Below, in pieces: positions 1,621-13,982 of a DNA stretch of 13,982 bases. Under the pieces are notes generated by a model. That model saw only the letters and a program-made list of their open reading frames with translations. It did not search any database and was not told the origin of the DNA. The first letter of the stretch is position 1. The number at the start of each line of letters is the position of its first letter. Made by a program: the position numbers and the translations under genes. The DNA is taken from NCBI GenBank assembly GCA_048938445.1, contig JBHLME010000119.1:1-13982 (forward strand), in the 5' to 3' direction. This DNA comes from Promethearchaeota archaeon. Its GTDB lineage: Archaea > Asgardarchaeota > Lokiarchaeia > Sigyniarchaeales > SOKP01.

Positions 1621-4023
1621 ATGGAAAGATTAAGCAAGAAAAATATTCAGAAAATCGGAATAATAATTGGAATTGTTATTTTTATTATAGGTTTGGTTTT
1701 AAATTCCATATTACCTTCCGATTTTTCAAGAGCTAATATCGAGCCTTTCACATTAGCAGAAGATGAATATCAGGTTACTATATTTGATCCTGGTATCAAT
1801 CAGATTGATTATGATTTTAAAATAGATTTGCATATATATATTACTGGAGAACCAAATTGCACTGTTTTAATTTTAAATTTAATAGAATATGAGAAATTCC
1901 TAGCTGAAGATTCATTAGATAATGTATCAGCATTGAATACAATAGATGGTCAATATGAGCCTAGAATGGATTCGATTGGTTATGTTGGATCTTTTTCAAG
2001 TAAGAATAGTGGTGTTATTTGTGTATTAATTGTTAATTTTGAAAATATTTCTGAAATAGAATATTATGGGTATTATTATACAATTAGCACTCCGATGTTC
2101 TTATATGGAGCAATTATAATGTTAATTGGAGTCATTATTGTCTTTAGTTTTTTAACATGGTATTTAAACGGATGGCAGAGATATTTTGCTATTGGAGTTG
2201 GAATTAACTTAAGTTTATTCATTGCCCGCATCCCGATCATGCCTTATCTATTTAATGAAACTCCTATGTTAATGGGACTTCAAAATATCTTTGATATTGA
2301 ATTGTTTAGGGATTTTGAAGCCTACTATCTTGGATGGACAAAAGCATTTACAAGTGGAGTATTTCCCTACTCAGAACAATATTTTTCTTATTATTATGGA
2401 CCACTTTTCATCCTAACACTTGGAAGTTTTGCTTACTTACCGATTCCTTGTTGGAGTGTAGCAATACCTTTATTTTTATCTTCTATAGGATCCGGATATC
2501 TACTTTTACTAATTTCACGACAGTTAACTAAAAATGAAAAATTTTCGATATTCGCAATGATGTTATTCTTTATAAATCCATTTACTTTAATGTATGCAAG
2601 TTTTATATGGTTAAATCCACCTATATTTACGGTATTTATATTATTATCATTTTATCTTGCCCTTATTAAAAAGAATTATTTATCAATTCTAATATTAGCC
2701 ATTGGAACAATGTACAAACAATATACAATAATTTTTTTTCCGCTTATACTCTTAATGTTGATAAAGAATCATAAAGGAAGCGATCGAAAATCTAAATTAA
2801 AACTCTTTTTTTCCTATTTACTTATTTATGGAGCCACTATCTTAGCAATTTCGCTTCCATTTCTGATTATTAAAACTCAATCGTATATTGAATTATATAT
2901 TATTAATATATCTTTTTCATTTGAGTTTTTTACAACCCTTAATTTTTACCCTAATTGGCCTACTCATTTTAACTCTTTTTTCTTGCTAATTGGTCTTCCA
3001 GATATCATTATTCAAGCAATTGCATACTTGCTTGTTTATTATGTTTTATTAGGAGGGAGTTTTGGGATCATATACTTGTTGTATGCTAAAAATTCAAAAT
3101 ATAAAAAGATCATAAAATTAAACTCAAATCATTCGAACATTATAGAAGCACTCTTTTTATCAATTTTTCTTATAATTAGCTTCCAATTGTTTTATCCCCG
3201 AGGATTTAAGTATAACTTGGTGCTTTTAACACCTTTTATTTCATTTTTTTTTAATTTACAGGATTTACATCTTCTTGGAATGAGTTCAATTGAAGAAAAA
3301 AATTTTAAATTTCAAAAAAAGTATTTAATTCCATTATTACTTTCATGGATAGTTTTTTTATGTTTTAAACATATTTATTTTTTAATTCTTATTGCCTGGT
3401 GTCTTTGCTATATATATTATAATTATAATTTCAAAAAAAAGTATATTAAGAAATTTAAGAAAATGATTCAATCTGATGAAAAAAAAAGTAATCTTAATGA
3501 ATTACCTCGCCCAGGTTCAACAATTTATGATTTTCACTTTCAAAGAGATGAGTTAAAGAAAAGAAAGTTGAAAAGGTGGCAAAAATTAAACAAATATTTC
3601 ATGATACCTTTATATCGAGCGAGATTATTACCATTATTAGGTTTTGGGAGGATTATACTATTATTAAAAACTACAGAATGGAAGACTGGAGAAAAAAGAC
3701 TAACTCCACTCGAATATAGAACAATTGATGGAAGCATTACGATATTTTCTGCGATGGGGGAGAAATCTATCTGGGTTAAAAATTTACGTGCAAATCCCGA
3801 AAAAGCAACTGTAAGACAGGGATTCCACCATTTTATACCTAATATAGAATTTATAACAGATGTAGATCAAAAAATTTCCATAATAAAATCATATGTTACT
3901 AAATTCGGGAAGTCCTCAAAAATGTTGTTCGGGTGGAATCCAAAACAAGATGATCCAGAATCAATTGATTATTTAAAATTAGTAAATTTACTCTCAATTA
4001 TAAAGCTTCATAAAACAACCTAA
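1621..4023 (+). CDS. Polytopic membrane protein (GT-C fold, GT87/DUF2029-like glycosyltransferase) fused to a C-terminal deazaflavin (F420)-dependent nitroreductase-family domain
   Basis: More than 10 hydrophobic segments. The loop DFEAYYLGW...GVFPY...YYYGPLF and later FFINPF and GTMYKQY resemble GT87-type motifs. From M615 (nt 3463), ILLLKTTEWKTGEKRLTPLEY...WVKNLRANP matches the Ddn/F420H2_quin_red pattern. An AGGT Shine-Dalgarno-like site lies at 1609-1612. Confidence 0.7.
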   Translation: MERLSKKNIQKIGIIIGIVIFIIGLVLNSILPSDFSRANIEPFTLAEDEYQVTIFDPGINQIDYDFKIDLHIYITGEPNCTVLILNLIEYEKFLAEDSLDNVSALNTIDGQYEPRMDSIGYVGSFSSKNSGVICVLIVNFENISEIEYYGYYYTISTPMFLYGAIIMLIGVIIVFSFLTWYLNGWQRYFAIGVGINLSLFIARIPIMPYLFNETPMLMGLQNIFDIELFRDFEAYYLGWTKAFTSGVFPYSEQYFSYYYGPLFILTLGSFAYLPIPCWSVAIPLFLSSIGSGYLLLLISRQLTKNEKFSIFAMMLFFINPFTLMYASFIWLNPPIFTVFILLSFYLALIKKNYLSILILAIGTMYKQYTIIFFPLILLMLIKNHKGSDRKSKLKLFFSYLLIYGATILAISLPFLIIKTQSYIELYIINISFSFEFFTTLNFYPNWPTHFNSFFLLIGLPDIIIQAIAYLLVYYVLLGGSFGIIYLLYAKNSKYKKIIKLNSNHSNIIEALFLSIFLIISFQLFYPRGFKYNLVLLTPFISFFFNLQDLHLLGMSSIEEKNFKFQKKYLIPLLLSWIVFLCFKHIYFLILIAWCLCYIYYNYNFKKKYIKKFKKMIQSDEKKSNLNELPRPGSTIYDFHFQRDELKKRKLKRWQKLNKYFMIPLYRARLLPLLGFGRIILLLKTTEWKTGEKRLTPLEYRTIDGSITIFSAMGEKSIWVKNLRANPEKATVRQGFHHFIPNIEFITDVDQKISIIKSYVTKFGKSSKMLFGWNPKQDDPESIDYLKLVNLLSIIKLHKTT

Positions 4024-4725: not shown

Positions 4726-5292
4726 TTATTTCACTTTTGAAATCGTAGTTATATTAGCTAAATCTAAAGAATATTTAACTCGACGTTGATGGGAGTTTAA
4801 ATCATTAATTTTGCCAACTGCGCTATTAGCTAAGCTTTTTATGGTATTGGATCTCTTTATATAATATTTTTCTGGAAGTTCATAAAATTCTAAACATTTA
4901 TATGAGCAAAACTCCACACATTTTGGTGAGCCATCACATAAATCACATTTAATTATTTTAATGTCCTTAGAAAATTCAATTGCACCAAAAGGGCACGCCT
5001 CAATACATTGCTGACAACTAGTACAGAGATCCGAATTAAAATCAACGATTAATTCTCCATTTGAGGTCTTTTTTTTATAAATTGCACCAGTTGGACAAGC
5101 ATCCATACATAAGGGTTCTTCACATTGAACACATACGAGTGGTCTGCTCCATCCTTCAAGTCCATTTGTGATAATTTTAATACAAGAGCGTTCAGGAATA
5201 AAAGATCCGTACTTAGTACTTGAACATGCTAATTCACACATTCGGCATCCCGTGCAATTTTCTGCTTGAATTATTAGGACTTTATTACTCAT
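4726..5292 (-). CDS. 4x[4Fe-4S] electron-transfer protein (DmsB/HydN-like), probable small subunit of the adjacent AOR
   Basis: Cys motifs CTGCRMCELAC, CVQCEEPLCMDACP, CTSCQQCIEACP and KCDLCDGSPKCVEFC. Lies 21 nt downstream of the AOR gene on the same strand. Confidence 0.92.
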   Translation of the reverse strand: MSNKVLIIQAENCTGCRMCELACSSTKYGSFIPERSCIKIITNGLEGWSRPLVCVQCEEPLCMDACPTGAIYKKKTSNGELIVDFNSDLCTSCQQCIEACPFGAIEFSKDIKIIKCDLCDGSPKCVEFCSYKCLEFYELPEKYYIKRSNTIKSLANSAVGKINDLNSHQRRVKYSLDLANITTISKVK

Positions 5293-5313
5293 TTTATTAT
5301 ATAACTCTTTTAA

Positions 5314-7137
5314 TTATGATTTTAATGTTATTTTAGGCTCCCTGCTAAAATCATACTTAGTGAGTGTTTCTCGTGTTGGAACACCCACCTCATTCCATCC
5401 TCGATTCAAATAATAATTCATCCTCATTTTTAAGAAATTTTCATTTCCTATTATCTTCCCTTTCGCAGGCCCTTCAATTAGACTTTCTTCTAAAATTCTT
5501 TTAGGTAACATATCATCTTTATAAGTTAATCCTTCTCGAAGATTAATACGCCGGATGAGCGTTTCAATGATTTCTGCTTTAAAATTCAGCTCATCCCAAG
5601 TATACTTTAATCCAGTAATATAATTTAAATAATCACACCATATCTTTTTATTAAACGATAAAGCTTGTGCAGGAAAGTCGCAAACTATTAGATTATGTAA
5701 GATACATCTCTCATTCATTAATTCTATAACCATTTCCGCTTTATTTTCTGTTGTAAAAGGATCAATTCCACCCAATATTTCTTTTGCTGGAGGCCAAGCT
5801 CTTCTATGACAAGCACCTCTAGGAGTAACAGAATATGTAATAGTACTTCCCCACCCTGCTCGGGGATCATACCCGGGAAATTCTAAACCCTTGGAATGTA
5901 ATGCAAAATCTTCAGTACCTTTTTTTAGCTGTTCGGACATTTTTTTTACACCTTGCGCACAAAAATTTCCAAAACCTTTTTTATGAGCCATAAGCTCAAG
6001 TAATTTGATCATTTCTTTATAGTTGCCAAATTTCAGTTCTAAACCATCCGTATCTTTTATCGTTAGGAGGCCTCGCTCAAAGCATTCCATTACAAAACCA
6101 ATAATTACTCCAGATGAAATTGTATCCATTCCTAAGTCATCGCATAAATAATTTGCTTTCATTATTGCTGGTAAATAATCAATTTCCAAGTTTGAACCTA
6201 GTAAAGAAAGTGTTTCATACTCAGGACCTTCAAGGATGAGGTTTTTAAACTCTCCGTCTTTGACTTTTGTAATATTAGAACATGACGCAAAACATGCAAA
6301 ACATGCTCGAAAACTTGTTGTTAGTTTATTGACAGCTAGCATATCAATGTTATCTTTTGCTTTAGGAAAGTGGCCAATTGTAAAGTTCCGAGTTGGTAAC
6401 ATTCCTGCGGCATTTGTGATACTTAGCGTCATTGGAGTAATTATCCTTCTTTTTCTTTTTTTGACAAGTTTTAAAGTAAGTGCTGATAACTTATCCATTT
6501 TCGCGCATTCAACTCCCCCTGAACCCTTGATAGCAATTGATTTAAGGTTTTTTGAACCCATTACCGCACCAGTTCCACCTCTTCCAGCTTTTCGAAAAAA
6601 ATCACTTCCAACACATGCAAATTGGAGGAGGTTTTCACCAGCAGGACCAATTGAAAGGCAACCACATTCTGGATGAAACCTTTCCTTCATATAAATTTCT
6701 GTCTCAAAAGCTCCTTTTCCCCATAGATGCATTGCATCATGATAACTCACAAGATCATCTTCAATTGTTAAATATAGAGGATGATGTGCTTTACCTTTAA
6801 TAATTAAAGCATCAAATCCTGCATATTTTAACTCAGGAGATACTCTGCCACTGGAATAAGATTCAAGCCAACCACCCGTTGTGGGAGATTTAGTTATAAT
6901 CACGTGTTTTGCTGAACCAAGAGCCATAGTTCCACCGAGTGGTCCCGTAATTACCATAAAAAGATTGTCTGGCTCAAGTGCTCCTGTTTGCGGAGAGAGA
7001 AGATCCCAATATAATTTTGAGCCTAATCCTCGACCTCCTATATATTTTACTAAGATTTCCTCTGGAATTGAAATAATTTCATGATTTTCTTGGTTTAAAT
7101 TGATAAATAATAATTTTCCTTTATAACCATCAAGCAT
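5314..7137 (-). CDS. aor: Tungsten-dependent aldehyde:ferredoxin oxidoreductase (AOR/WOR family)
   Basis: Family motifs: GYKGKLLFINL, YIGGRGLG, KSPTTG, ELKYAGFD, IGPAGENL, GRGGTGAVMGSKNLK, LPTRNF, the CxxCxxxC Fe-S motif (CFACFASC), EGPEYET, CDDLGMDTIS, YDPR, RGACH, YYLNRGWNEVGVPT. Length 607 aa. Confidence 0.95.
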   Translation of the reverse strand: MLDGYKGKLLFINLNQENHEIISIPEEILVKYIGGRGLGSKLYWDLLSPQTGALEPDNLFMVITGPLGGTMALGSAKHVIITKSPTTGGWLESYSSGRVSPELKYAGFDALIIKGKAHHPLYLTIEDDLVSYHDAMHLWGKGAFETEIYMKERFHPECGCLSIGPAGENLLQFACVGSDFFRKAGRGGTGAVMGSKNLKSIAIKGSGGVECAKMDKLSALTLKLVKKRKRRIITPMTLSITNAAGMLPTRNFTIGHFPKAKDNIDMLAVNKLTTSFRACFACFASCSNITKVKDGEFKNLILEGPEYETLSLLGSNLEIDYLPAIMKANYLCDDLGMDTISSGVIIGFVMECFERGLLTIKDTDGLELKFGNYKEMIKLLELMAHKKGFGNFCAQGVKKMSEQLKKGTEDFALHSKGLEFPGYDPRAGWGSTITYSVTPRGACHRRAWPPAKEILGGIDPFTTENKAEMVIELMNERCILHNLIVCDFPAQALSFNKKIWCDYLNYITGLKYTWDELNFKAEIIETLIRRINLREGLTYKDDMLPKRILEESLIEGPAKGKIIGNENFLKMRMNYYLNRGWNEVGVPTRETLTKYDFSREPKITLKS

Positions 7138-7174: not shown

Positions 7175-7795
7175 TTACTCATGGATTAGAGCCATTACTT
7201 CTTTTTCAAGTTGTCTTAAAATTAAGTTTCCCATTCCTAGCTTTACATTAGCGGTAAATATTAATATCATTATATACTTTTTTTGATGTATATTAAAAAA
7301 TCGAGAGCATACCATCTGCTTATTTTCGAGGACCAGATAAATTCTACTTGTATCTATGAGATTTTCTTCTTTTCTAACTTCGAATTCTCTAATGGTGTTG
7401 AATAGAGTATCTGGAGGAAGTGAAGAATATATAATTTTGCCTTCAATGCTAAATAAGGCACTTCCAAGAATCTCTTGGTCATCTACAACACTTCTTAAAA
7501 CTCGTATAATATCATTTAGCTTTGGAATAACGTGATGGGCTTCTTGTTCTTCATCTTTATCTAAGTATTCAATCGTTGAAAAGTCAAAATCGACTTGTTG
7601 ATAACCTCTTACTTTAAAATTCTTGTCAATAAAAGCTTGAAAACTATGTTCACAACATAATTTTGCGGGTATGGAAACAGTAGTCAACTGCTTGCTCTGA
7701 TTTATAATCTTAACGGGGACAGATAATTTTTTTTTAGTATCACATTTAGGACAAATTATAGAAACTTCCTTGAGAGAATCTTCTGTTTCAACCAT
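7175..7795 (-). CDS. Two-domain protein: N-terminal Zn-binding (CPxC...CxH) domain plus C-terminal Roadblock/MglB/LAMTOR-like domain
   Basis: N-terminal CPKC...CCEHSFQAFIDKNFKVRGYQQVDF, a domain I associate with Lokiarchaeia hypothetical proteins. C-terminal EILGSALFSIEGKIIYSSLP...IMILIFTANVKLGMGNLILRQLEKEV follows the Roadblock/LC7 pattern. The fold call is by eye. Confidence 0.6.
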   Translation of the reverse strand: MVETEDSLKEVSIICPKCDTKKKLSVPVKIINQSKQLTTVSIPAKLCCEHSFQAFIDKNFKVRGYQQVDFDFSTIEYLDKDEEQEAHHVIPKLNDIIRVLRSVVDDQEILGSALFSIEGKIIYSSLPPDTLFNTIREFEVRKEENLIDTSRIYLVLENKQMVCSRFFNIHQKKYIMILIFTANVKLGMGNLILRQLEKEVMALIHE

Positions 7796-8227
7796 TTTTA
7801 CTATTTTTTTATGTAGTTCTTGCTCTTATTAGTAATATATTAAATAAAAAATTATATGTTAATTTACTCTTAATGAGATGCTTTAAATTTATTATTGAAT
7901 CACTCACGTGTTCTTTGGAATTATTTAAATTGAAATTAAAGATAATAGAGAATATCTATTTTAAGAAGGTTTAAATAAACCTTATTAAAAAATAAAATGC
8001 TATTATAAAAATTTATTGAAAAAAAAAGGTTTTTTAATAAGAATTTTTATAATATTATCAAAAAAAATTTCTGTAAAATCTAAAATAGATTTATTTCACA
8101 TTAGAACTAATCAACATTTTCGTTAAATTCATTGAAAAGTCAATAGAAACAGGGGTAAGGTTTTTCATATAATGCAAGAAAACATTGAATTTCAGTATTT
8201 CAATAAAAATCAGATCATTAACATAAA

Positions 8228-8235
8228 TTTATAAG
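8228..8235 (+). promoter_or_regulatory. Putative TATA box of the longin-cheW-cheY-cheA operon
   Basis: TTTATAAG preceded by A-rich bases, beginning 27 nt upstream of the in-frame ATG at 8255. Compatible with a leaderless transcript starting near 8255. Confidence 0.4.
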
Positions 8236-8245
8236 GGTTTACTCG

Positions 8246-9061
8246 ATGATTGGTATGAATAAAGTGATTGGTATTAACAACGAGGATTTAAACACACTTC
8301 AAATATTAGGGGTTGGACTTGTTACCCTTTCATCAAAAGAATCAAATGATAATATTGATGTATTCTTACAAAAGGGTATAGGTCGGTCTCTCATTCAAAA
8401 TATCATTGAGTTATATAAAGATGAGATCCTACAAAAAAGGAATGGAAAATCATTTTTTCCCTTAGAAGAATTCATGGTCTTCATAAATTATTTTAAATCC
8501 TTATCAAATGAGATTTTAATTATTATTTATATAGATGAAAAAGAAAGTGCTCATGTTTATCCTCAATTGTATCTCCATTCAAAAAAAATAATGAAGAGAT
8601 ACAATGAGAATCACGATATTGAAGAAATTATATCTATTTGTGAATCTACCGTTGAGATTCCACGAATAGATGGTGTTATTGGTGTTTTTATTGTCGATTA
8701 TGGGGGATGTCCGTTATATACAAAAGTTATGGGGATTAGAAAAGATATAATTGATGGTGAAGTACAAATTGGCGGGTTTATTTCAGCATTATTTTCCTTT
8801 TCTCAATTTGTAATTGGAAAAGAAAGTGGGGGAAAACTAAGAGAAATCAATTTTGGGAATCAGTCCTTTTATACAATTACGGAAAAGAAAGTCATAATTG
8901 CTTATTTGATTGAGAAAATGACCCCCTTACTTAAAAGATATATGTATATAATCGCTGAAGAGTTTGTAGGTAGATATAGAAAGGTTCTTAATAGTTTTGA
9001 TGGAGATATTGCTCAATTTGGTAGTTTTGAAAATATAATAAATGAATATTTAATTATTTGA
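8246..9061 (+). CDS. Longin-like domain protein (C-terminal longin-like domain; N-terminal half possibly a second, divergent longin-like fold); start may be ATG 8255
   Basis: C-terminal half VIGVFIVDYGGCPLYTK...QIGGFISALFSFSQFVIG...LREINFG...IAEEFVGRY...FDGDIAQFGSF follows the beta-beta-alpha-beta-beta-beta-alpha-alpha pattern typical of Asgard longin-like proteins. Confidence 0.65.
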   Translation: MIGMNKVIGINNEDLNTLQILGVGLVTLSSKESNDNIDVFLQKGIGRSLIQNIIELYKDEILQKRNGKSFFPLEEFMVFINYFKSLSNEILIIIYIDEKESAHVYPQLYLHSKKIMKRYNENHDIEEIISICESTVEIPRIDGVIGVFIVDYGGCPLYTKVMGIRKDIIDGEVQIGGFISALFSFSQFVIGKESGGKLREINFGNQSFYTITEKKVIIAYLIEKMTPLLKRYMYIIAEEFVGRYRKVLNSFDGDIAQFGSFENIINEYLII

Positions 9062-9077
9062 AAAAGGTTAACAAAAA

Positions 9078-9599
9078 ATGATAAGTGAAAGTGATAGTAG
9101 CAAACAAACTGTATCTGTAGTATTATTTGAAGTTGAAAGGGAGCAATTTTGTATTGATTTATTGACTGCTCGAGAAATAGTTCCTAAAGGTCAAATTAGG
9201 AGATTACCCCAAACGTTTGATTTTGTAGAGGGAATATATAACTACCGAGGAGACATTATTTATGTAATCAATATTGCTAAAAAATTAAAATTATCTGAAT
9301 TTAAAACCCTAAAAATGAAAGGTATAGAAGAGCAAGATGAAACCGGTTCTAATAATTATATCATGATTGTTAATATTAATAATATCAATACAGGATTCTT
9401 AGTAGATCGTATCTTAAATATATCCCATATAAAAGCAAATTCAATAGTAGGATTAAGTCCAATATTTGAAACAAGCATTAGTATTGAATATATTAAAGGG
9501 ATTGTAAAATTTGACGATCGTCCTAGAATTTTGCTTGATGTGGAAAAAGTTCTTACTGAAGCAGAACAAGTTCAAATTCAAAAAGAATTAAATAAATAA
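9078..9599 (+). CDS. cheW: Chemotaxis coupling protein CheW
   Basis: VVLFEVEREQFCIDLLTAREIV, IRRLPQTFDFVEGIYNYRGDIIYVINI, TGFLVDRI and YIKGIVKFDDRPRILLDVEKVL are CheW motifs. Adjacent to cheY and cheA. Confidence 0.95.
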   Translation: MISESDSSKQTVSVVLFEVEREQFCIDLLTAREIVPKGQIRRLPQTFDFVEGIYNYRGDIIYVINIAKKLKLSEFKTLKMKGIEEQDETGSNNYIMIVNINNINTGFLVDRILNISHIKANSIVGLSPIFETSISIEYIKGIVKFDDRPRILLDVEKVLTEAEQVQIQKELNK

Positions 9600-9603
9600 A
9601 AAA

Positions 9604-9999
9604 ATGGGAATAAAAATGGCGGATGATAAAAAAAGAGTACTAATTGTGGATGATGCTCAATTTACTCGAAATATTTTAAAAAATATTATGAGTAAAACGG
9701 GTTATGTTGAAATTGTTGGAGAAGCCTCAAATGGTAAAGAAGGGATTGATTTATTTAAAAAATTAAAACCTGATATGATTACCATGGATTTAGTAATGCC
9801 TGAAAAGGGAGGAATCGAAACAATTGAGGAGATATTAAAGATAGATCCTAAGGCCTTAATTGTAGTAGTTTCTGCCTTAGGACAAGAAGCATTAGTTCTT
9901 GAAGCTGCCAAGAAAGGAGCTAAAGATTTCATTCAAAAACCCTTCAAAACCGAGCAAATTTTAGAAGTCCTTGAAAGAATATTAAAAAAAAAAGCATAA
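9604..9999 (+). CDS. cheY: Chemotaxis response regulator CheY (stand-alone receiver; start may be ATG 9616)
   Basis: VLIVDDAQFTR, VGEASNG, phosphoacceptor region PDMITMDLVMP, VSALGQ and GAKDFIQKPF. Resembles the Firmicutes/archaeal (F1-class) CheY type. Confidence 0.95.
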   Translation: MGIKMADDKKRVLIVDDAQFTRNILKNIMSKTGYVEIVGEASNGKEGIDLFKKLKPDMITMDLVMPEKGGIETIEEILKIDPKALIVVVSALGQEALVLEAAKKGAKDFIQKPFKTEQILEVLERILKKKA

Positions 10000-10037
10000 T
10001 AAACAAAATTTGAAAAAATCAATTAATAGGTGTTCAC

Positions 10038-12128
10038 GTGTCTGTATCTAAGGACGATATTAAACTTTTCATAAGTGAAGCAGAAGATTTAATACAAAAA
10101 GTCGAAGATGAGGTCTTTAAATTAGAAAAAAATCCAAATGATATGAAACCCGTACAGGAACTTTACTTTGCATTTCATACATTAAAAGGTCTCACAGCGA
10201 TGGCGAGTCTTAATAATGCTTCAAAGTTTTGTCATTATTTTGAGTCGTTTTTAGATAAAACAAAAGATAGTCAGATTGATGAAAACCAACAAGATGATTT
10301 TATAAGATTATTATTTGATAGTCTAGATTTACTACGGTCAATCTTGAAAAGAGTAAAAAAAGGTGACATGTCCGATATTGACGAGAATTTTTTAATTTCA
10401 ATTAAGGATAGTTTCGATGAATTTGAAACGGGAGCCGAACCAGAATTATCTTTAATAGTTCCAATTGCTCCTGATAAATTTATAAAAATCATAGATGATA
10501 AAAAGAACCTGATTTATAAGATTTACATTAGGCTTCAACCTACATGCGTCTTTAAAAAAGTGAGATTATTCATTATTTTTAGAGCATTAAACGAAGTTGG
10601 ACAAATATTTTTTAGTAAACCTTATCCTGAGATTTTAGAAAAAGGAGATATTAAAGTCGATTTTGAAATCTATTTTCTAACTCAGAAAAAAGACAATGAT
10701 ATAATGAAAATCTTAGATGAAATTTTGGAAATTGAAAATAAAGTTATCACGATATTAAAGGATGATGAGATTAAAACTTTAATTGATAAAGATATTTCAG
10801 ATTGGTTTAAAGGAGCAAAAAAACCAGAAATAAGTTCTAAAGTTGAAAAAAAACCAAAAACCAAAATAGAACCAAGTAAAGTTAGAGACATTTCACGAAT
10901 AACGGGTACTTTTGAAGATGAAGGAAAGATAACTAGTGTAAAAGTTGACATTAATATATTGGAAGAATTAATGAATTATTTTAGTGAATTAGTAATTTCT
11001 AAGAATCAAATTACTCAACTTTTAAAAAATAAAGGGGACCAAGAATTAGTTCACATCTTTGACGAGATGGATAAACCCTTTCTTGAAATTCAAGAAATTC
11101 TCTTCGATCTTAAACTTATTCGAGTTGAATCTACTTTTAGAATTTTTCGAAGATTAGTACGTGATGTTGGAAGAGAAGTGGATAAAAAAGTTCAATTAAT
11201 ATTAGAGGGTACAAACGTGGAAATTGATAGAAAAATTCTGGAAGAATTAAACGCCCCTTTGATACATTTATTAAGAAATGCAATATATCATGGAATAGAA
11301 ACACCTAGTGAGAGAAAAAAGAAGAAAAAAGATGAAACTGGAACGATAAGACTTGCAACGCTAAGAAGGGCAGGTATGATATATATCGAGGTTGAAGATG
11401 ATGGAAGAGGAATTGATTATGAGACAATTCGTAAAAAAGCTGTTGAAAAGAACTTCTATTCAAAAGAAGATGCTAGCGAACTCAGTGATGAGGACCTAAA
11501 TAAAATCATTTTAATGCCGGGATTTTCAATTCTTGAAGGAGCAGATCAAATATCTGGGAGAGGAATGGGATTAGCAATAGTTGCTGAAAAAATTAAAGAA
11601 TTAGGGGGTTCATTTACAATTCATTCCGAAAAGGACGTTGGCACGACCTTTAGGTTGATGGTTCCATTTACAAGGGCGATTCTTAATGCCCAATTAATAA
11701 AAGTTTCTGGAGATTTATTTGCAATACCTACAGAAAATATTAAACAAATATATCTTTATAATAAAGCTTTAGTAGAATATGTAGGAGATACTGAATATTA
11801 CAAGTTAGATGCGGATTTAATACCAATAATTTATTTAAACCGTTATTTAAAATTCGATAAAGATCATTTACTAGAAGAATCTGACTCAAAAATAGCTATT
11901 TGGGTTAAGAAAGATGAAAATATTTCAGCAGTATTTGTAATGGACGATATCCTACAACAAATGAATGTCGTCGTAAAACCTTTCAAGTTTAGTTACTCAG
12001 ATTTCTATAATATATTGGGCTCAACTATAATGTCAGATGGTTCGATATGTTTAATATTAGATGTCTTGAGTATTATTGCATCTTATATCACTGAAGATAA
12101 ATTTTCTAAACTAACTAGTATACAATAA
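10038..12128 (+). CDS. cheA: Chemotaxis histidine kinase CheA (HPt-P2-dimerisation-HATPase-CheW domain), GTG start
   Basis: HPt FAFHTLKG; P2 IYKIYIRLQPTCVFKKVRLFIIFRAL; P3 SVKVDINILEELMNYFSELVI; P4 HLLRNAIYHGIE, EDDGRGID, PGFS, SGRGMGL; P5 ILGSTIMSDGSICLILDV. An AGGTG Shine-Dalgarno-like site lies at 10028-10032. Confidence 0.96.
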   Translation: MSVSKDDIKLFISEAEDLIQKVEDEVFKLEKNPNDMKPVQELYFAFHTLKGLTAMASLNNASKFCHYFESFLDKTKDSQIDENQQDDFIRLLFDSLDLLRSILKRVKKGDMSDIDENFLISIKDSFDEFETGAEPELSLIVPIAPDKFIKIIDDKKNLIYKIYIRLQPTCVFKKVRLFIIFRALNEVGQIFFSKPYPEILEKGDIKVDFEIYFLTQKKDNDIMKILDEILEIENKVITILKDDEIKTLIDKDISDWFKGAKKPEISSKVEKKPKTKIEPSKVRDISRITGTFEDEGKITSVKVDINILEELMNYFSELVISKNQITQLLKNKGDQELVHIFDEMDKPFLEIQEILFDLKLIRVESTFRIFRRLVRDVGREVDKKVQLILEGTNVEIDRKILEELNAPLIHLLRNAIYHGIETPSERKKKKKDETGTIRLATLRRAGMIYIEVEDDGRGIDYETIRKKAVEKNFYSKEDASELSDEDLNKIILMPGFSILEGADQISGRGMGLAIVAEKIKELGGSFTIHSEKDVGTTFRLMVPFTRAILNAQLIKVSGDLFAIPTENIKQIYLYNKALVEYVGDTEYYKLDADLIPIIYLNRYLKFDKDHLLEESDSKIAIWVKKDENISAVFVMDDILQQMNVVVKPFKFSYSDFYNILGSTIMSDGSICLILDVLSIIASYITEDKFSKLTSIQ

Positions 12129-12162
12129 AAAAAATTAAAGAAAAGTAAGAGTAGATAAAAAA

Positions 12163-13982
12163 ATGGGATTTAAAAATATAACCCAGATGGAATTGAAGAT
12201 TAAGCAAGGACCAAGTTTTCTTGGAATTCCTCAAAAAGTTGTAGGACAAATTCAAAAAGAAGAAGTAAAAGTGGGTTTAACAACAGCAAAAATGTTAACT
12301 GAAGTAAAACAATTGTCCGAAATTATCATAGAAAATGAAGAGGTCTTAGAATTCAATCTTCAACATGAAGGAAAAATGAATAGCGTGGAAGGTTATGGAA
12401 ATATCTCAATATTTAATAATTCTGATAGAGATAGAATTTGGGATACTCGAATTCAGTTTTCCGGAACCGAATTTAGTAGTTTAGAATCTGAAAATGACAT
12501 GAATTTAGGAATTTTCGAACCAAAAACCAGTAGAAATATAAAATATAATCTTATAGATGCAGAAAAGCTTCCAGATCTCTTAAAAATTAGAGAAAATATC
12601 GAGATTATCGAAAATGATGTCTTAATTTTCCGAGATACTGAAGAAGGCTCTAAAGAAAAAAATCATTTACTTCTTTTTGGTAATGAAAATCAAGTTAGGT
12701 TTATATTAAATATAGAGAATATTTCAAAAAATACAATTACAAATATTGATTTAAAAAAAACTATATCAAAAAGTTTTTATGGACTACGATTTGAAGGAGA
12801 AACAGATAAATATTTAAAAATCAGTGGGAATAATCTACAATGGAGCATTAAAGAGATTAGACCTCGTCAAAAAATCACATTATCATTTATAGCAAAAATA
12901 ACTCCTAAATCCAAGGAAAACGTGAGGACTGGGAAAATAGATGTTTCATATACTTTAAAAGATCATGTTATATCTGGAGTAAAGGTTAATAATTTTTGGG
13001 CATACTCCCACGCGATGCATTCAATTGATAAAATAGAAAAAGATGAAACTCCTAATACGTGGGCTTGCTCATTAACATTTAAAAATCAAAGTAGTTTTCC
13101 AATGAGACTTAATTCCATTTTAGTCACTGATAAATCAAATCAAGAGAAATATCTTGATTTAGATTTAACACCAAAAGATAGAGAAGTGATTATAAAACCT
13201 GGTGAACGATATAATTCAAAAGTTTGGGAAATTTCAGATGAAAATGAACCAAGATTTTCAAGAAAATTAGAATATTATGTTAACTATAAACTTGAAGAAA
13301 ATACTGATGTTATTCTACGAATTGATGATGATATATTTAAAATCGTTGGTATTAAGATAAATAAAAAGATGTCGGAGCAAGAGATTAAATCTTTTGAAGA
13401 ATCAACAATTCATGTTAATATTAAACTAGAAAATATGGGAACGATCCCTCTGAAAGGAATAGTAATTAAAGAATCCATTCCGGAAGATTTTTTACCTCCA
13501 TTTAACATTTCTGACTATAAATTTTTAAACTCAACGGGAGAATTAGATTCAAATAATTTTAATTTAAAAATTAGTCCTGAGGATGAAAACGCTTCAAAAC
13601 CTCATGTAATAGAAATCAGTAATAAAAGTGAATTATCTAATGTCATCAATACTAATGATTTCTTTGAAGTGAATTATTCTTTTAAAGCAATTTCTCCAGA
13701 TAATAAAAAAGACTATAAATTTCCCCTTGAAGTAAAATCATTTTATCACAAATTCAAGGCTGATGAAGAATTAAAGGATTTTAAATTCGAAGATAAAGCA
13801 GATTTAAAAGTGTTTTACATTAAAGAAGAAGCATTAGCAAAAACAGAAGAAGCCCCAACATTGAAGATTGCCCATAAGCGTCGTAAAGCTTCCATTGGAA
13901 AAGAAATATTCCCAGGAAAGAATCATGACGAATTTGCAATAGTTATTAATGTAAGTAATAAATCAAATGTAGAACTCACGGA
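12163..13982 (+). CDS. Large soluble beta-rich protein (more than 606 aa, truncated by the window end): putative mu-homology (adaptin-mu/delta-COP C-terminal-like) domain followed by Ig-like/DUF11-like beta-sandwiches
   Basis: Not in the ORF track because it has no stop codon in the window. Manual translation is open from ATG 12163 (MGFKNITQMELKIKQGPSFLG...) to the last base (...FAIVINVSNKSNVELT). It starts 34 nt after the cheA stop. No signal peptide or TM segment is seen. The ORF is well supported; the domain call is by eye. Confidence 0.75.
   Translation, partial: MGFKNITQMELKIKQGPSFLGIPQKVVGQIQKEEVKVGLTTAKMLTEVKQLSEIIIENEEVLEFNLQHEGKMNSVEGYGNISIFNNSDRDRIWDTRIQFSGTEFSSLESENDMNLGIFEPKTSRNIKYNLIDAEKLPDLLKIRENIEIIENDVLIFRDTEEGSKEKNHLLLFGNENQVRFILNIENISKNTITNIDLKKTISKSFYGLRFEGETDKYLKISGNNLQWSIKEIRPRQKITLSFIAKITPKSKENVRTGKIDVSYTLKDHVISGVKVNNFWAYSHAMHSIDKIEKDETPNTWACSLTFKNQSSFPMRLNSILVTDKSNQEKYLDLDLTPKDREVIIKPGERYNSKVWEISDENEPRFSRKLEYYVNYKLEENTDVILRIDDDIFKIVGIKINKKMSEQEIKSFEESTIHVNIKLENMGTIPLKGIVIKESIPEDFLPPFNISDYKFLNSTGELDSNNFNLKISPEDENASKPHVIEISNKSELSNVINTNDFFEVNYSFKAISPDNKKDYKFPLEVKSFYHKFKADEELKDFKFEDKADLKVFYIKEEALAKTEEAPTLKIAHKRRKASIGKEIFPGKNHDEFAIVINVSNKSNVELT

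Follow-up and report, generated by a model that had tools for sequence, protein, structure and literature searches.

What does a chemosensory (Che) pathway act on in an Asgard archaeon in whose genome neither CheF nor archaellin is found? According to PMC9680633, Che in euryarchaea acts through CheF on the ArlCDE switch of the archaellum. The question is raised by contig JBHLME010000119.1 of GenBank assembly GCA_048938445.1, from a Promethearchaeota archaeon (Asgardarchaeota; Lokiarchaeia; Sigyniarchaeales; SOKP01). This contig of 13,982 bp, with a GC content of about 27%, is one of 256 in a 4.63-Mb assembly. The whole contig is called the window here. It holds cheW, cheY and cheA between two genes for proteins with predicted eukaryote-type folds, P2 and P3, beside a divergent gene, P1. 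The P2-cheW-cheY-cheA-P3 arrangement is conserved in related genomes far beyond chance, and P2 and P3 very probably contribute to the work of the Che system in one manner or another. An earlier reading of the DNA, the original prediction, had proposed that Che signalling is coupled here to a machinery of the GTPase or trafficking type. This idea has survived every computable test and is partly supported.

The genes and the intergenic region concerned are given below, with lengths in amino acids (aa) taken from open reading frames (ORFs).

7175-7795, minus strand: P1, 206 aa according to the ORF list
7796-8245, no strand: divergent intergenic region between P1 and P2, 450 bp, very AT-rich
8246-9061, plus strand: P2, 271 aa, first gene of the che operon
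9078-9599, plus strand: cheW, 173 aa, Pfam CheW at E 1.4e-25
9604-9999, plus strand: cheY, 131 aa, single-domain response regulator, Pfam Response_reg at E 1e-27
10038-12128, plus strand: cheA, 696 aa, GTG start, five domains by Pfam
12163-13980, plus strand: P3, N-terminal part of 606 aa, ORF open at the contig end

The five co-oriented genes from P2 to P3 are separated by 16, 4, 38 and 34 nt, and these gaps, recomputed from the ORF coordinates, are identical to those first noted. The P2 operon and P1 share the 450-bp region, as had also been described, and this region presumably carries the promoters of both genes. The contig stops inside P3, so the gene row is interrupted there, and its continuation is seen in relatives.

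The Che core and its conserved gene row

The 11 ORFs of the window were scanned against Pfam. In CheA, the Hpt domain, the CheA-type P2 domain and the dimerisation, HATPase_c and CheW-like domains are all above the curated cut-offs, as are the separate CheW and the single-domain receiver. Among 21 CheY orthologues, D16, D17, D62, S90 and K112 are invariant, and we take these residues to be the acidic pair, the phospho-acceptor Asp, the Ser/Thr and the Lys of the receiver fold. The stretch from S90 to P113 is nearly all invariant in the same orthologues. No part of the Che core is missing, and CheY varies neither in its active site nor in its output face. The window CheW and the P5 domain of CheA are the only CheW domains found in the source genome. 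P1 and P2 matched no Pfam family at E<=0.01, P3 gave a weak DUF11 match alone, and NCBIfam returned nothing for the three proteins. The scan found no archaellum, cheF or pilus family among the 11 ORFs, in keeping with what the original prediction had said of the window.

Do the flanking genes stay with the che genes in other genomes? Among 41 related genomes, full-length P2 orthologues lie beside CheW-CheY-CheA-P3 in five congeners and in two other genera of the window's family. A single genome from a different family also has P2-CheW-CheY-CheA-P3, with a P2 identity of 34%. The gene order persists between genera and between two families at identities as low as 31-34%, and this is the synteny of longin-like and mu-homology-like genes with cheW-cheY-cheA that the original prediction had proposed to look for.

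A wider comparison comes from 38 loci, retrieved by the P3 profile from a species-representative collection and mapped by BLAST and a hidden Markov model against the proteins of the window and of a congener. The loci are records of metagenome-assembled genomes (MAGs) mostly labelled Promethearchaeota or Asgard; one is labelled Bathyarchaeota, yet belongs to the window's order. The denominators that follow leave out loci without enough flank, and three loci start inside P3. The consensus order is P1< P2> CheW> CheY> CheA> P3> X> CheW::CheC> Y> [CheR>] CheB> CheD> CheC> [GTPase>] CheB2>. CheA is immediately 5' of P3 in 35/35 loci, and X is immediately 3' of P3 in 36/36. P2 stands directly 5' of CheW in 27 of 30 loci (it is missing in L094, L100 and L109), CheW::CheC comes after X in 33/34, and Y is present in 30/32. 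P1 is found divergently upstream of P2 in 16 of the 27 loci that bear P2. Pfam searches of two full loci confirmed the Che assignments and a CheW domain fused to CheC/CheX repeats. The cluster in the window's genus ends with a second, convergent P1 paralogue (L075, L095).

X, a protein of about 280 aa, is a single-copy marker of the cluster. It matched no Pfam family at E<=0.01 in 20 members and no meaningful PDB profile, and its Atlas feature matches were all below 0.9. Y is known from relatives only. Its profile, built from 16 members, matched 7c2f_B (E 5.4e-7), 7c2h_G (1.4e-5) and CapG (2.9e-4) in the PDB, together with 7whf, 7whg (Asgard chains to E 2.5e-3) and villin, and Pfam Gelsolin was found in 10 of the 16 members (best E 5.7e-4). 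Judged by these matches, Y is a gelsolin-like protein, with one gelsolin-like domain and a C-terminal helical tail. The solved Asgard gelsolin-like chains that the profile matches (7c2f, 7c2h, 7whf and 7whg) are reported to regulate actin; Y itself is encoded within the che operon.

Of the 21 loci that reach past CheC, 16 have a gene for a Ras-family GTPase before the second CheB, and GTPase matches occur elsewhere in the cluster in L100 and L110. The L085 copy, of 319 aa, is the one that was searched against Pfam. It matches Ras (E 3.3e-39), Arf and Gtr1_RagA, with a weak N-terminal match to Robl_LC7. The GTPase calls in the other loci are best BLAST matches to this L085 protein. The gelsolin-like and GTPase genes of relatives extend the evidence past what the window alone could show.

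A conserved row does not need to be a functional one. The eukaryote-like genes might be neighbours that share only regulation or history with che and act independently of Che signalling. This would suit the existence of paralogues of the P1, P2 and P3 families in non-che contexts, and also the tree of 35 P2 sequences, in which the che-linked label requires two changes. However, an order with gaps of tens of bases is kept across two families at 31-34% identity, and interleaving within an operon would be unusual for genes of unrelated functions. In addition, of the 41 genomes with CheW in which X was sought, those that have it all belong to the window's family. We regard mere neighbourhood as improbable.

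Predicted folds of P3, P2 and P1

Full-length P3 congeners have 675-676 aa, and the window copy is without the last ~70 residues. Because the window P3 is cut by the contig end, a 675-aa congener, 73% identical, was modelled with AlphaFold2 from 43 aligned homologues. The model is all-beta, with a mean predicted confidence (pLDDT) of 80.2, and the protein is probably cytoplasmic. It suggests a disordered part of ~50 aa, a complete two-subdomain domain resembling the mu-homology domain (MHD) at ~49-386, and then immunoglobulin (Ig)-like beta-sandwich domains. The three opening residues, MGF, do not vary among the 43 homologues. The N-terminal ~50 residues are partly conserved and are modelled as disordered with a short helix at 8-13; as a speculation, this N-terminus might be a short docking motif.

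Foldseek matched the P3 model to integrin legs and to the C-terminal domains of the mu subunits of adaptor protein (AP) complexes, and the top 1000 chains were realigned with VIA-align. For ~49-386, AP-4 mu4 came first on realignment (Z 16.4, root-mean-square deviation (rmsd) 2.9, 219/250 aligned). AP-2 mu2 scored a Z of about 16 (residues 169-435 of the mu2 chain), the mu subunits of AP-1 and AP-3 a Z of 15, the delta-COP MHD 14.9 and the SGIP1 MHD 14.1. Over these MHDs, 214-228 residues were aligned at Z 14-16.4. The MHD/Ig-like fold that the original prediction had read from the sequence is in line with this predicted structure and its alignment to AP mu and the delta-COP MHD.

Similarity was also sought at the level of profiles. 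Pfam DUF11 is found in 43/43 P3 orthologues. For Adap_comp_sub, a che-linked orthologue reaches E 1.1e-5 (25.4 bits, under the cut-off of 31.6), and the window fragment gives no match to this family at E<=0.01. The profile of the MHD region found 651 proteins at E<=1e-3 in a library of 1.84 billion proteins. From the best 150 matches, 68 were chosen with a length below ~1,100 aa and near-full coverage; in this wider family, DUF11 is recognised in 60 and Adap_comp_sub in 33 (best E 1.9e-10). When the 68-member profile was compared with all PDB sequences, it gave 29 matches at E<=1. Mu subunits of AP-1, AP-2 and AP-3 account for 24 of these, including all nine best, and gamma-adaptin ear domains account for four. 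AP-3 mu was the best match at E 0.0026, and the top mu-adaptin matches lay at 0.0026-0.08. A narrower MHD profile including paralogues gave AP-3 mu as its top three matches. The profile of P3 orthologues only gave no adaptin match in the PDB, and adaptins appear only with paralogues in the profile. We read these results as a genuine MHD-like domain in P3, probably homologous to the eukaryotic one, although this reading depends on a modelled structure and on E-values that are marginal.

The other part of P3 leads to a different explanation of the locus. In the structural alignment, residues 390-600 match Ig-like domains from pilins of Gram-positive bacteria (Z 14.6), and DUF11 is found throughout the orthologues. 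The pathway might control a structure for motility or at the cell surface that has escaped recognition, perhaps a new kind of filament or an adhesion apparatus, with P3 and its DUF11/Ig-like domains as a part of it. A 742-aa frame with a weak T2SSE ATPase match in the source genome is consistent with such a structure. However, the N-terminus of P3, modelled as disordered, has no hydrophobic signal or anchor segment, and the best structural match of P3 is a cytoplasmic eukaryotic domain. Neither a T2SSF platform nor an archaellin was found in the source genome. A surface structure of this kind has little probability in our view.

P3 homologues are annotated as hypothetical or DUF11 proteins, and their sources are Promethearchaeota, Lokiarchaeia, Lokiarchaeota and similar. 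Some paralogues have neighbours of other kinds. On source contig C23 (L072:6071-10017), a 721-aa P3 paralogue (DUF11 5e-11, Adap_comp_sub 3.9e-6) is immediately followed by a 548-aa protein that matches the BBS7 beta-propeller (1.6e-17), BBS2_Mid and Itfg2. This MHD-like protein and its BBSome-type propeller may be a coat-like gene pair. On source contig C105 (L074:844-5013), a 793-aa P3 paralogue lies ~1.3 kb from a 154-aa Roadblock/LC7 protein, which also matches the LAMTOR3-type MAPKK1_Int family. Long P3 variants of 970-1064 aa with an extra N-terminal part are seen in L098, L109, L110 and L111, and the region matching the window P3 begins only past residue 400-500 in these proteins.

P2 was modelled with AlphaFold2 on an alignment of 16 family members (pLDDT 80.4, predicted template modelling score (pTM) 0.80). 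The model shows the succession beta-beta-alpha-beta-beta-beta-alpha twice, at ~22-122 and 144-243, within domains that span ~19-139 and ~143-271. As a whole chain, P2 has its best Foldseek matches in Fuzzy (E 3.9e-5), Mon1-Ccz1 (2.6e-4) and BLOC-3, and its single domains match Roadblock, MglB, AP sigma and TRAPP. The domains were also compared by VIA-align, a search independent of Foldseek. The C-terminal domain matched Sec22 (Z 12.4, rmsd 2.6, 117 aa), the VAMP7 longin (Z 12.3), Asgard Roadblock3 (9jue, Z 12.1) and MglB (Z 11.3). The N-terminal domain matched the Lst4 longin (Z 10.7), a GATOR1 subunit (Z 10.3), FNIP2 (Z 10.2) and Fuzzy (Z 9.1). Pfam Fuz_longin_1 was found in 4/16 members of the family, with a best E of 5.3e-5. 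According to its model, P2 is a cytoplasmic protein of two tandem longin-type domains; the longin-like fold assigned beforehand reappears here as a predicted tandem, with structural matches to solved longins. Many weak relatives of the isolated C-terminal domain occur in related genomes as fusions with diverse proteins.

Two groups of longin proteins resemble P2 as modelled. The best whole-chain matches are in the tri-longin guanine nucleotide exchange factors (GEFs) of Rab proteins, namely Mon1-Ccz1, Fuzzy-Inturned and BLOC-3. Unlike these, P2 has two longin domains, not three, and P1 gives no partner signal by hhalign. The longin platforms of GTPase-activating type, GATOR1 and FLCN-FNIP, are matched by the N-terminal domain, with Lst4, Nprl and FNIP2 at Z 10.2-10.7.

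A third comparison takes P2 and P3 together. In AP mu, delta-COP and muniscins, the predicted P3 domain at ~49-386 superposes on the whole MHD, and the predicted longins of P2 align at Z ~10 with the longins at the N-termini of AP sigma and mu. In contrast to AP mu, the longin and the MHD are in separate genes here, with cheW-cheY-cheA between them. The N-terminus of P3 is modelled as disordered instead of forming a longin, P3 adds Ig-like domains, P2 has two longins, and the sequence similarity of P3 is marginal. No large adaptin subunit emerged as a partner, though no search was aimed at one.

In L100, a locus without P2, two ORFs of 127 and 126 aa (5765-6532) lie just 5' of CheW. They match no Pfam family and could be a split or replaced longin pair.

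P1 is composed of an N-terminal zinc-ribbon-like domain of the form CPxC...CxH, an acidic linker and a C-terminal alpha/beta domain. In an alignment of 25 relatives, C15, P16, C48 and H50 are invariant. Weak matches to Pfam CpXC occur in 13 of the 25 members, and there are weak Zn-ribbon matches too. The Atlas model of residues 90-205 resembles Robl_LC7 clusters at a TM-score of 0.70 over 111 aa. Pfam Robl_LC7 gave no match in the 25 members at E<=1, the P1 profile found only an esterase at E 0.71 in the PDB, and hhalign of P1 against P2 gave a probability of 1%, that is, no similarity. P1 had been described at the outset as a Zn/Roadblock-like protein. Its zinc-ribbon motif stands as invariant. 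The Roadblock/LC7-like nature of the C-terminal half, suggested by one structural neighbour, stays a lead because Robl_LC7, PDB-profile and P2-profile similarity are all lacking. P1 is a member of a large paralogous family, with matches in 41/41 related genomes.

P1 and P2 relatives also meet away from the cluster. L047 has a full-length che-unlinked P2 copy (687-2163) with a P1 homologue convergent and directly adjoining. In L045 (5235-6365), a P1 homologue is convergent beside a short P2-like ORF of 133 aa. The che-linked P2 in both of these genomes is without an adjoining P1. The presence of P1 homologues beside che-unlinked P2-family ORFs in L045 and L047 suggests that proteins of the P1 and P2 types are partners even where che is not involved.

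Che and archaellum genes in the source genome and the phylum

The source assembly is 96.5% complete with 8.2% contamination, and negatives in this incomplete assembly mean "not found", not "absent". It contains 13 matches to methyl-accepting chemotaxis proteins (MCPs) above cut-off, 5 CheR, 3 CheB and one frame each of CheC type and CheD type. Most of the MCP frames are short, at 263-334 aa. CheF (PF04283), archaellin (PF01917) and the T2SSF platform (PF00482) have 0 matches in the source genome, and T2SSE has weak matches only, one of them in the 742-aa frame mentioned above. The suggestion to look in the source genome for arl and cheF genes thus ended with neither CheF nor archaellin. The set of parts, namely CheA, CheW, CheY, CheB, CheR, CheC, CheD and MCPs, is the same as in the euryarchaeal Che-archaellum system. 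The differences are that no CheF, archaellin or platform gene was detected here, and that the Che genes alternate with four to six others, whose products have eukaryote-type folds.

The downstream half of the operon is unassembled or lost in the source genome. A tblastn search for the congener X, CheW::CheC, Y, CheD and CheC found distant paralogues on C129, C146, C12 and C187 only, and the second P1 paralogue, on source contig C215, has no cheC after it. We infer the full cluster from congeners because the source assembly is without X, CheW::CheC and Y. Away from the che cluster, CheR and CheD domains are found in one 467-aa frame (C146:24959-26074), which is apparently a CheR-CheD fusion.

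Could the window simply come from a conventional archaeal Che system in which CheF relays the signal to an archaellum, with the genes missed through incomplete assembly or divergence? The genome is in 256 contigs, its contamination is 8.2%, and the che contig itself is cut, all of which leaves room for missed genes. However, the same pattern is seen well beyond this genome. In a phylum sample of 251 genomes, 41 have CheW, and 11 of these 41 are >=90% complete and <=5% contaminated. CheF was found in 0/41 and archaellin in 1/41 of the CheW-positive genomes, and the control genomes were detected. In relatives, no archaellar gene is seen within 10 kb of the cluster. As to the cheF or archaellum genes that might have lain just downstream of the window, none was found; the operon of relatives continues with che genes and further unknowns. 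An ordinary Che-archaellum system is very improbable.

Che without a recognisable archaellum is general in the sampled Asgard genomes. With CheF in none and archaellin in one of the 41, the output of Che is unexplained across most of the sampled phylum. Complementarity between the cluster and CheF/archaellum was considered as an argument and rejected, since both are lacking in nearly all CheW-positive Asgard genomes.

The cluster itself has a much narrower distribution. X is present in 12/13 CheW-positive genomes of the window's family (the source genome is excluded, as its contig ends first) and in 0/27 of other Asgard families. A close P3-family member (E<=1e-50) is present in 15/41, comprising 14/14 in the window's family including the source and one in a sister family, or 1/27 outside the window's family. 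The P2-che-P3-X-Y supercluster does not extend beyond a single group of the rank of order.

The half of the contig that precedes P1, common to congeners only, stands outside the che system. It encodes a helix-turn-helix protein, an 800-aa membrane protein, a 195-aa ORF, a ferredoxin and an aldehyde:ferredoxin oxidoreductase. The 800-aa ORF (1621-4023) has a weak GT87-like membrane glycosyltransferase region at residues 257-491 and a C-terminal match, at residues 679-740, to the F420H2-dependent quinone reductase / deazaflavin oxidoreductase family. At 4726-7137, where ferredoxin and aldehyde:ferredoxin oxidoreductase are encoded, the GC content is 34-37%, compared with 26-29% elsewhere on the contig.

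A candidate output module

If the output is not a rotary motor, the proteins encoded within the operon are candidates for it. As in any Che pathway, receptors, CheW and CheA would phosphorylate CheY. Phosphorylated CheY (CheY-P) would then act on the embedded eukaryote-type module instead of a rotary motor. By analogy with eukaryotes and with Myxococcus MglB, the longin platform of P2, possibly with P1, might regulate or scaffold a small GTPase. The MHD of P3 might bind short peptide motifs or membrane proteins and so localise the module, together with the Ig-like domains. The gelsolin-like Y could act on Lokiactin filaments. In this manner, chemical gradients would bias local membrane/actin remodelling, for example the growth of protrusions, instead of swimming. 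We see about an even chance that the eukaryote-like proteins serve in this way, as the output or as adaptors of a Che pathway that needs no archaellum, biasing local membrane/actin remodelling. The fullest form of this idea is a Che phosphorelay wired to longin, GTPase, MHD and gelsolin/Lokiactin, which would direct actin-supported protrusions or the remodelling of membranes towards higher concentrations of a chemical (chemotropism) and in which P2 and P3 together are a relative of mu-adaptin/delta-COP. In this form it is rather doubtful.

The main rival places the same proteins on the input side. P2, P3, X and Y may be structural or positioning parts of the chemoreceptor array, acting as scaffolds, as localisation factors or as accessories of adaptation, comparable to the roles of ParP/ParC and CheV in bacteria, and the target of CheY-P would be elsewhere. 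The position of the genes speaks for this, as they sit among the core array genes (CheW, CheA, CheW::CheC) and not at the end of the operon, and P3 is directly 3' of CheA in every one of the 35 testable loci. The predicted MHD and Ig-like folds of P3 are peptide-binding or scaffold folds, and the short MCP frames would fit arrays that need extra anchoring. On the other hand, a gelsolin-like protein and a Ras-family GTPase are unexpected as array parts, and we know of no chemoreceptor-array component with longin, MHD or gelsolin-like folds. Other CheW-positive Asgard families also have no X (0/27) and close P3 relatives in 1/27. On balance, a purely structural role is unlikely, though it is the alternative to be taken most seriously.

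Several observations weigh against the proposal of an output module. The physical or genetic tie of CheY to P1, P2, P3, X and Y is a putative one. A complex prediction for CheY with P2 and P3(1-395), with alignments as input, gave a score of 0.00, which carries no weight for or against binding. Folds of the longin, MHD and Ig types serve interactions of many kinds, and to share one is no proof of function. The MHD assignment depends on the AlphaFold2 model and on scores that are below threshold for che-linked orthologues. The P1, P2 and P3 families have che-independent roles, since paralogues of all three occur away from che genes. The source genome holds three full-length P3 paralogues with a partial match on a fourth contig, and 31 matches of the P1 family. 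Che-unlinked copies make up 7/16 rows of the P2-family alignment, and P1 is missing beside P2 in 11/27 loci. A GTPase gene is missing from the cluster at 5/21 testable loci, and neither of the two loci of the window's own genus that reach past CheC (L075, L095) has one. X, the CheW::CheC fusion and Y are lacking in the source assembly, where tblastn detects only distant paralogues. Finally, the lack of CheF and archaellin cannot single out the cluster, because it is common to 41/41 and 40/41 genomes.

The proposed output module has a possible bacterial counterpart. In Myxococcus xanthus, the Frz chemosensory pathway controls the polarity module of the MglA GTPase and the Roadblock protein MglB. 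Both systems pair a Che-type pathway with a Ras-family GTPase and regulators of Roadblock/longin fold, here as judged by the genes and the predicted folds, and the C-terminal domain of P2, as modelled, matches MglB at Z 11.3. The Asgard system differs in being archaeal, in having the longin and GTPase genes inside the che operon and in adding MHD and gelsolin-like proteins. The window's genus differs further in having no GTPase gene in the cluster.

Related observations have been made in other Asgard archaea. The accessible part of PMC9834061 reports putative chemoreceptor arrays and che genes in the cultured 'Ca. Lokiarchaeum ossiferum', names no output there, and gives che genes in 27/97 MAGs. 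Its Supplementary Table 3 lists a "Longin" directly 5' of CheW and CheA, followed by an uncharacterised protein (UYP44120-44123). By annotation this row is similar to that of the window, its flanking proteins being possible orthologues of P2 and P3, and the other two of the three CheA loci listed in this material are without such neighbours. The annotation table of the same paper, as accessible, has no Adap_comp_sub entry. In the parts available, 10.1101/2021.04.02.438162 describes the AP mu/sigma domain (the longin part) in two Asgard groups, and 10.1101/2025.07.22.663070 mentions chemotaxis and archaellum machinery in another Asgard archaeon. Longin and adaptin-like clusters are listed in 10.64898/2026.10.28.762692, whose main text does not contain "mu homology", "MHD" or "chemotaxis". 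In the literature within reach, which did not extend to subscription journals and preprint supplements, we found no report of a che-longin-MHD cluster or of an Asgard MHD.

Many Asgard genomes contain che genes, and among the genomes sampled almost none has archaellin and none has CheF, which poses the question of what Che controls in these organisms. The cluster offers concrete output candidates encoded in the same operon, namely tandem-longin, MHD and gelsolin-like proteins and often a Ras-family GTPase. If the MHD homology holds, a coat-adaptor element would be added to the Asgard inventory. If P2 and P3 together are indeed related to mu-adaptin/delta-COP, the origin of the mu-homology domain would be placed before eukaryogenesis. 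If the proposed output is true, the cluster would be the first link of prokaryotic chemosensing to the eukaryotic toolkit of actin, GTPases and adaptors for directed growth or trafficking.

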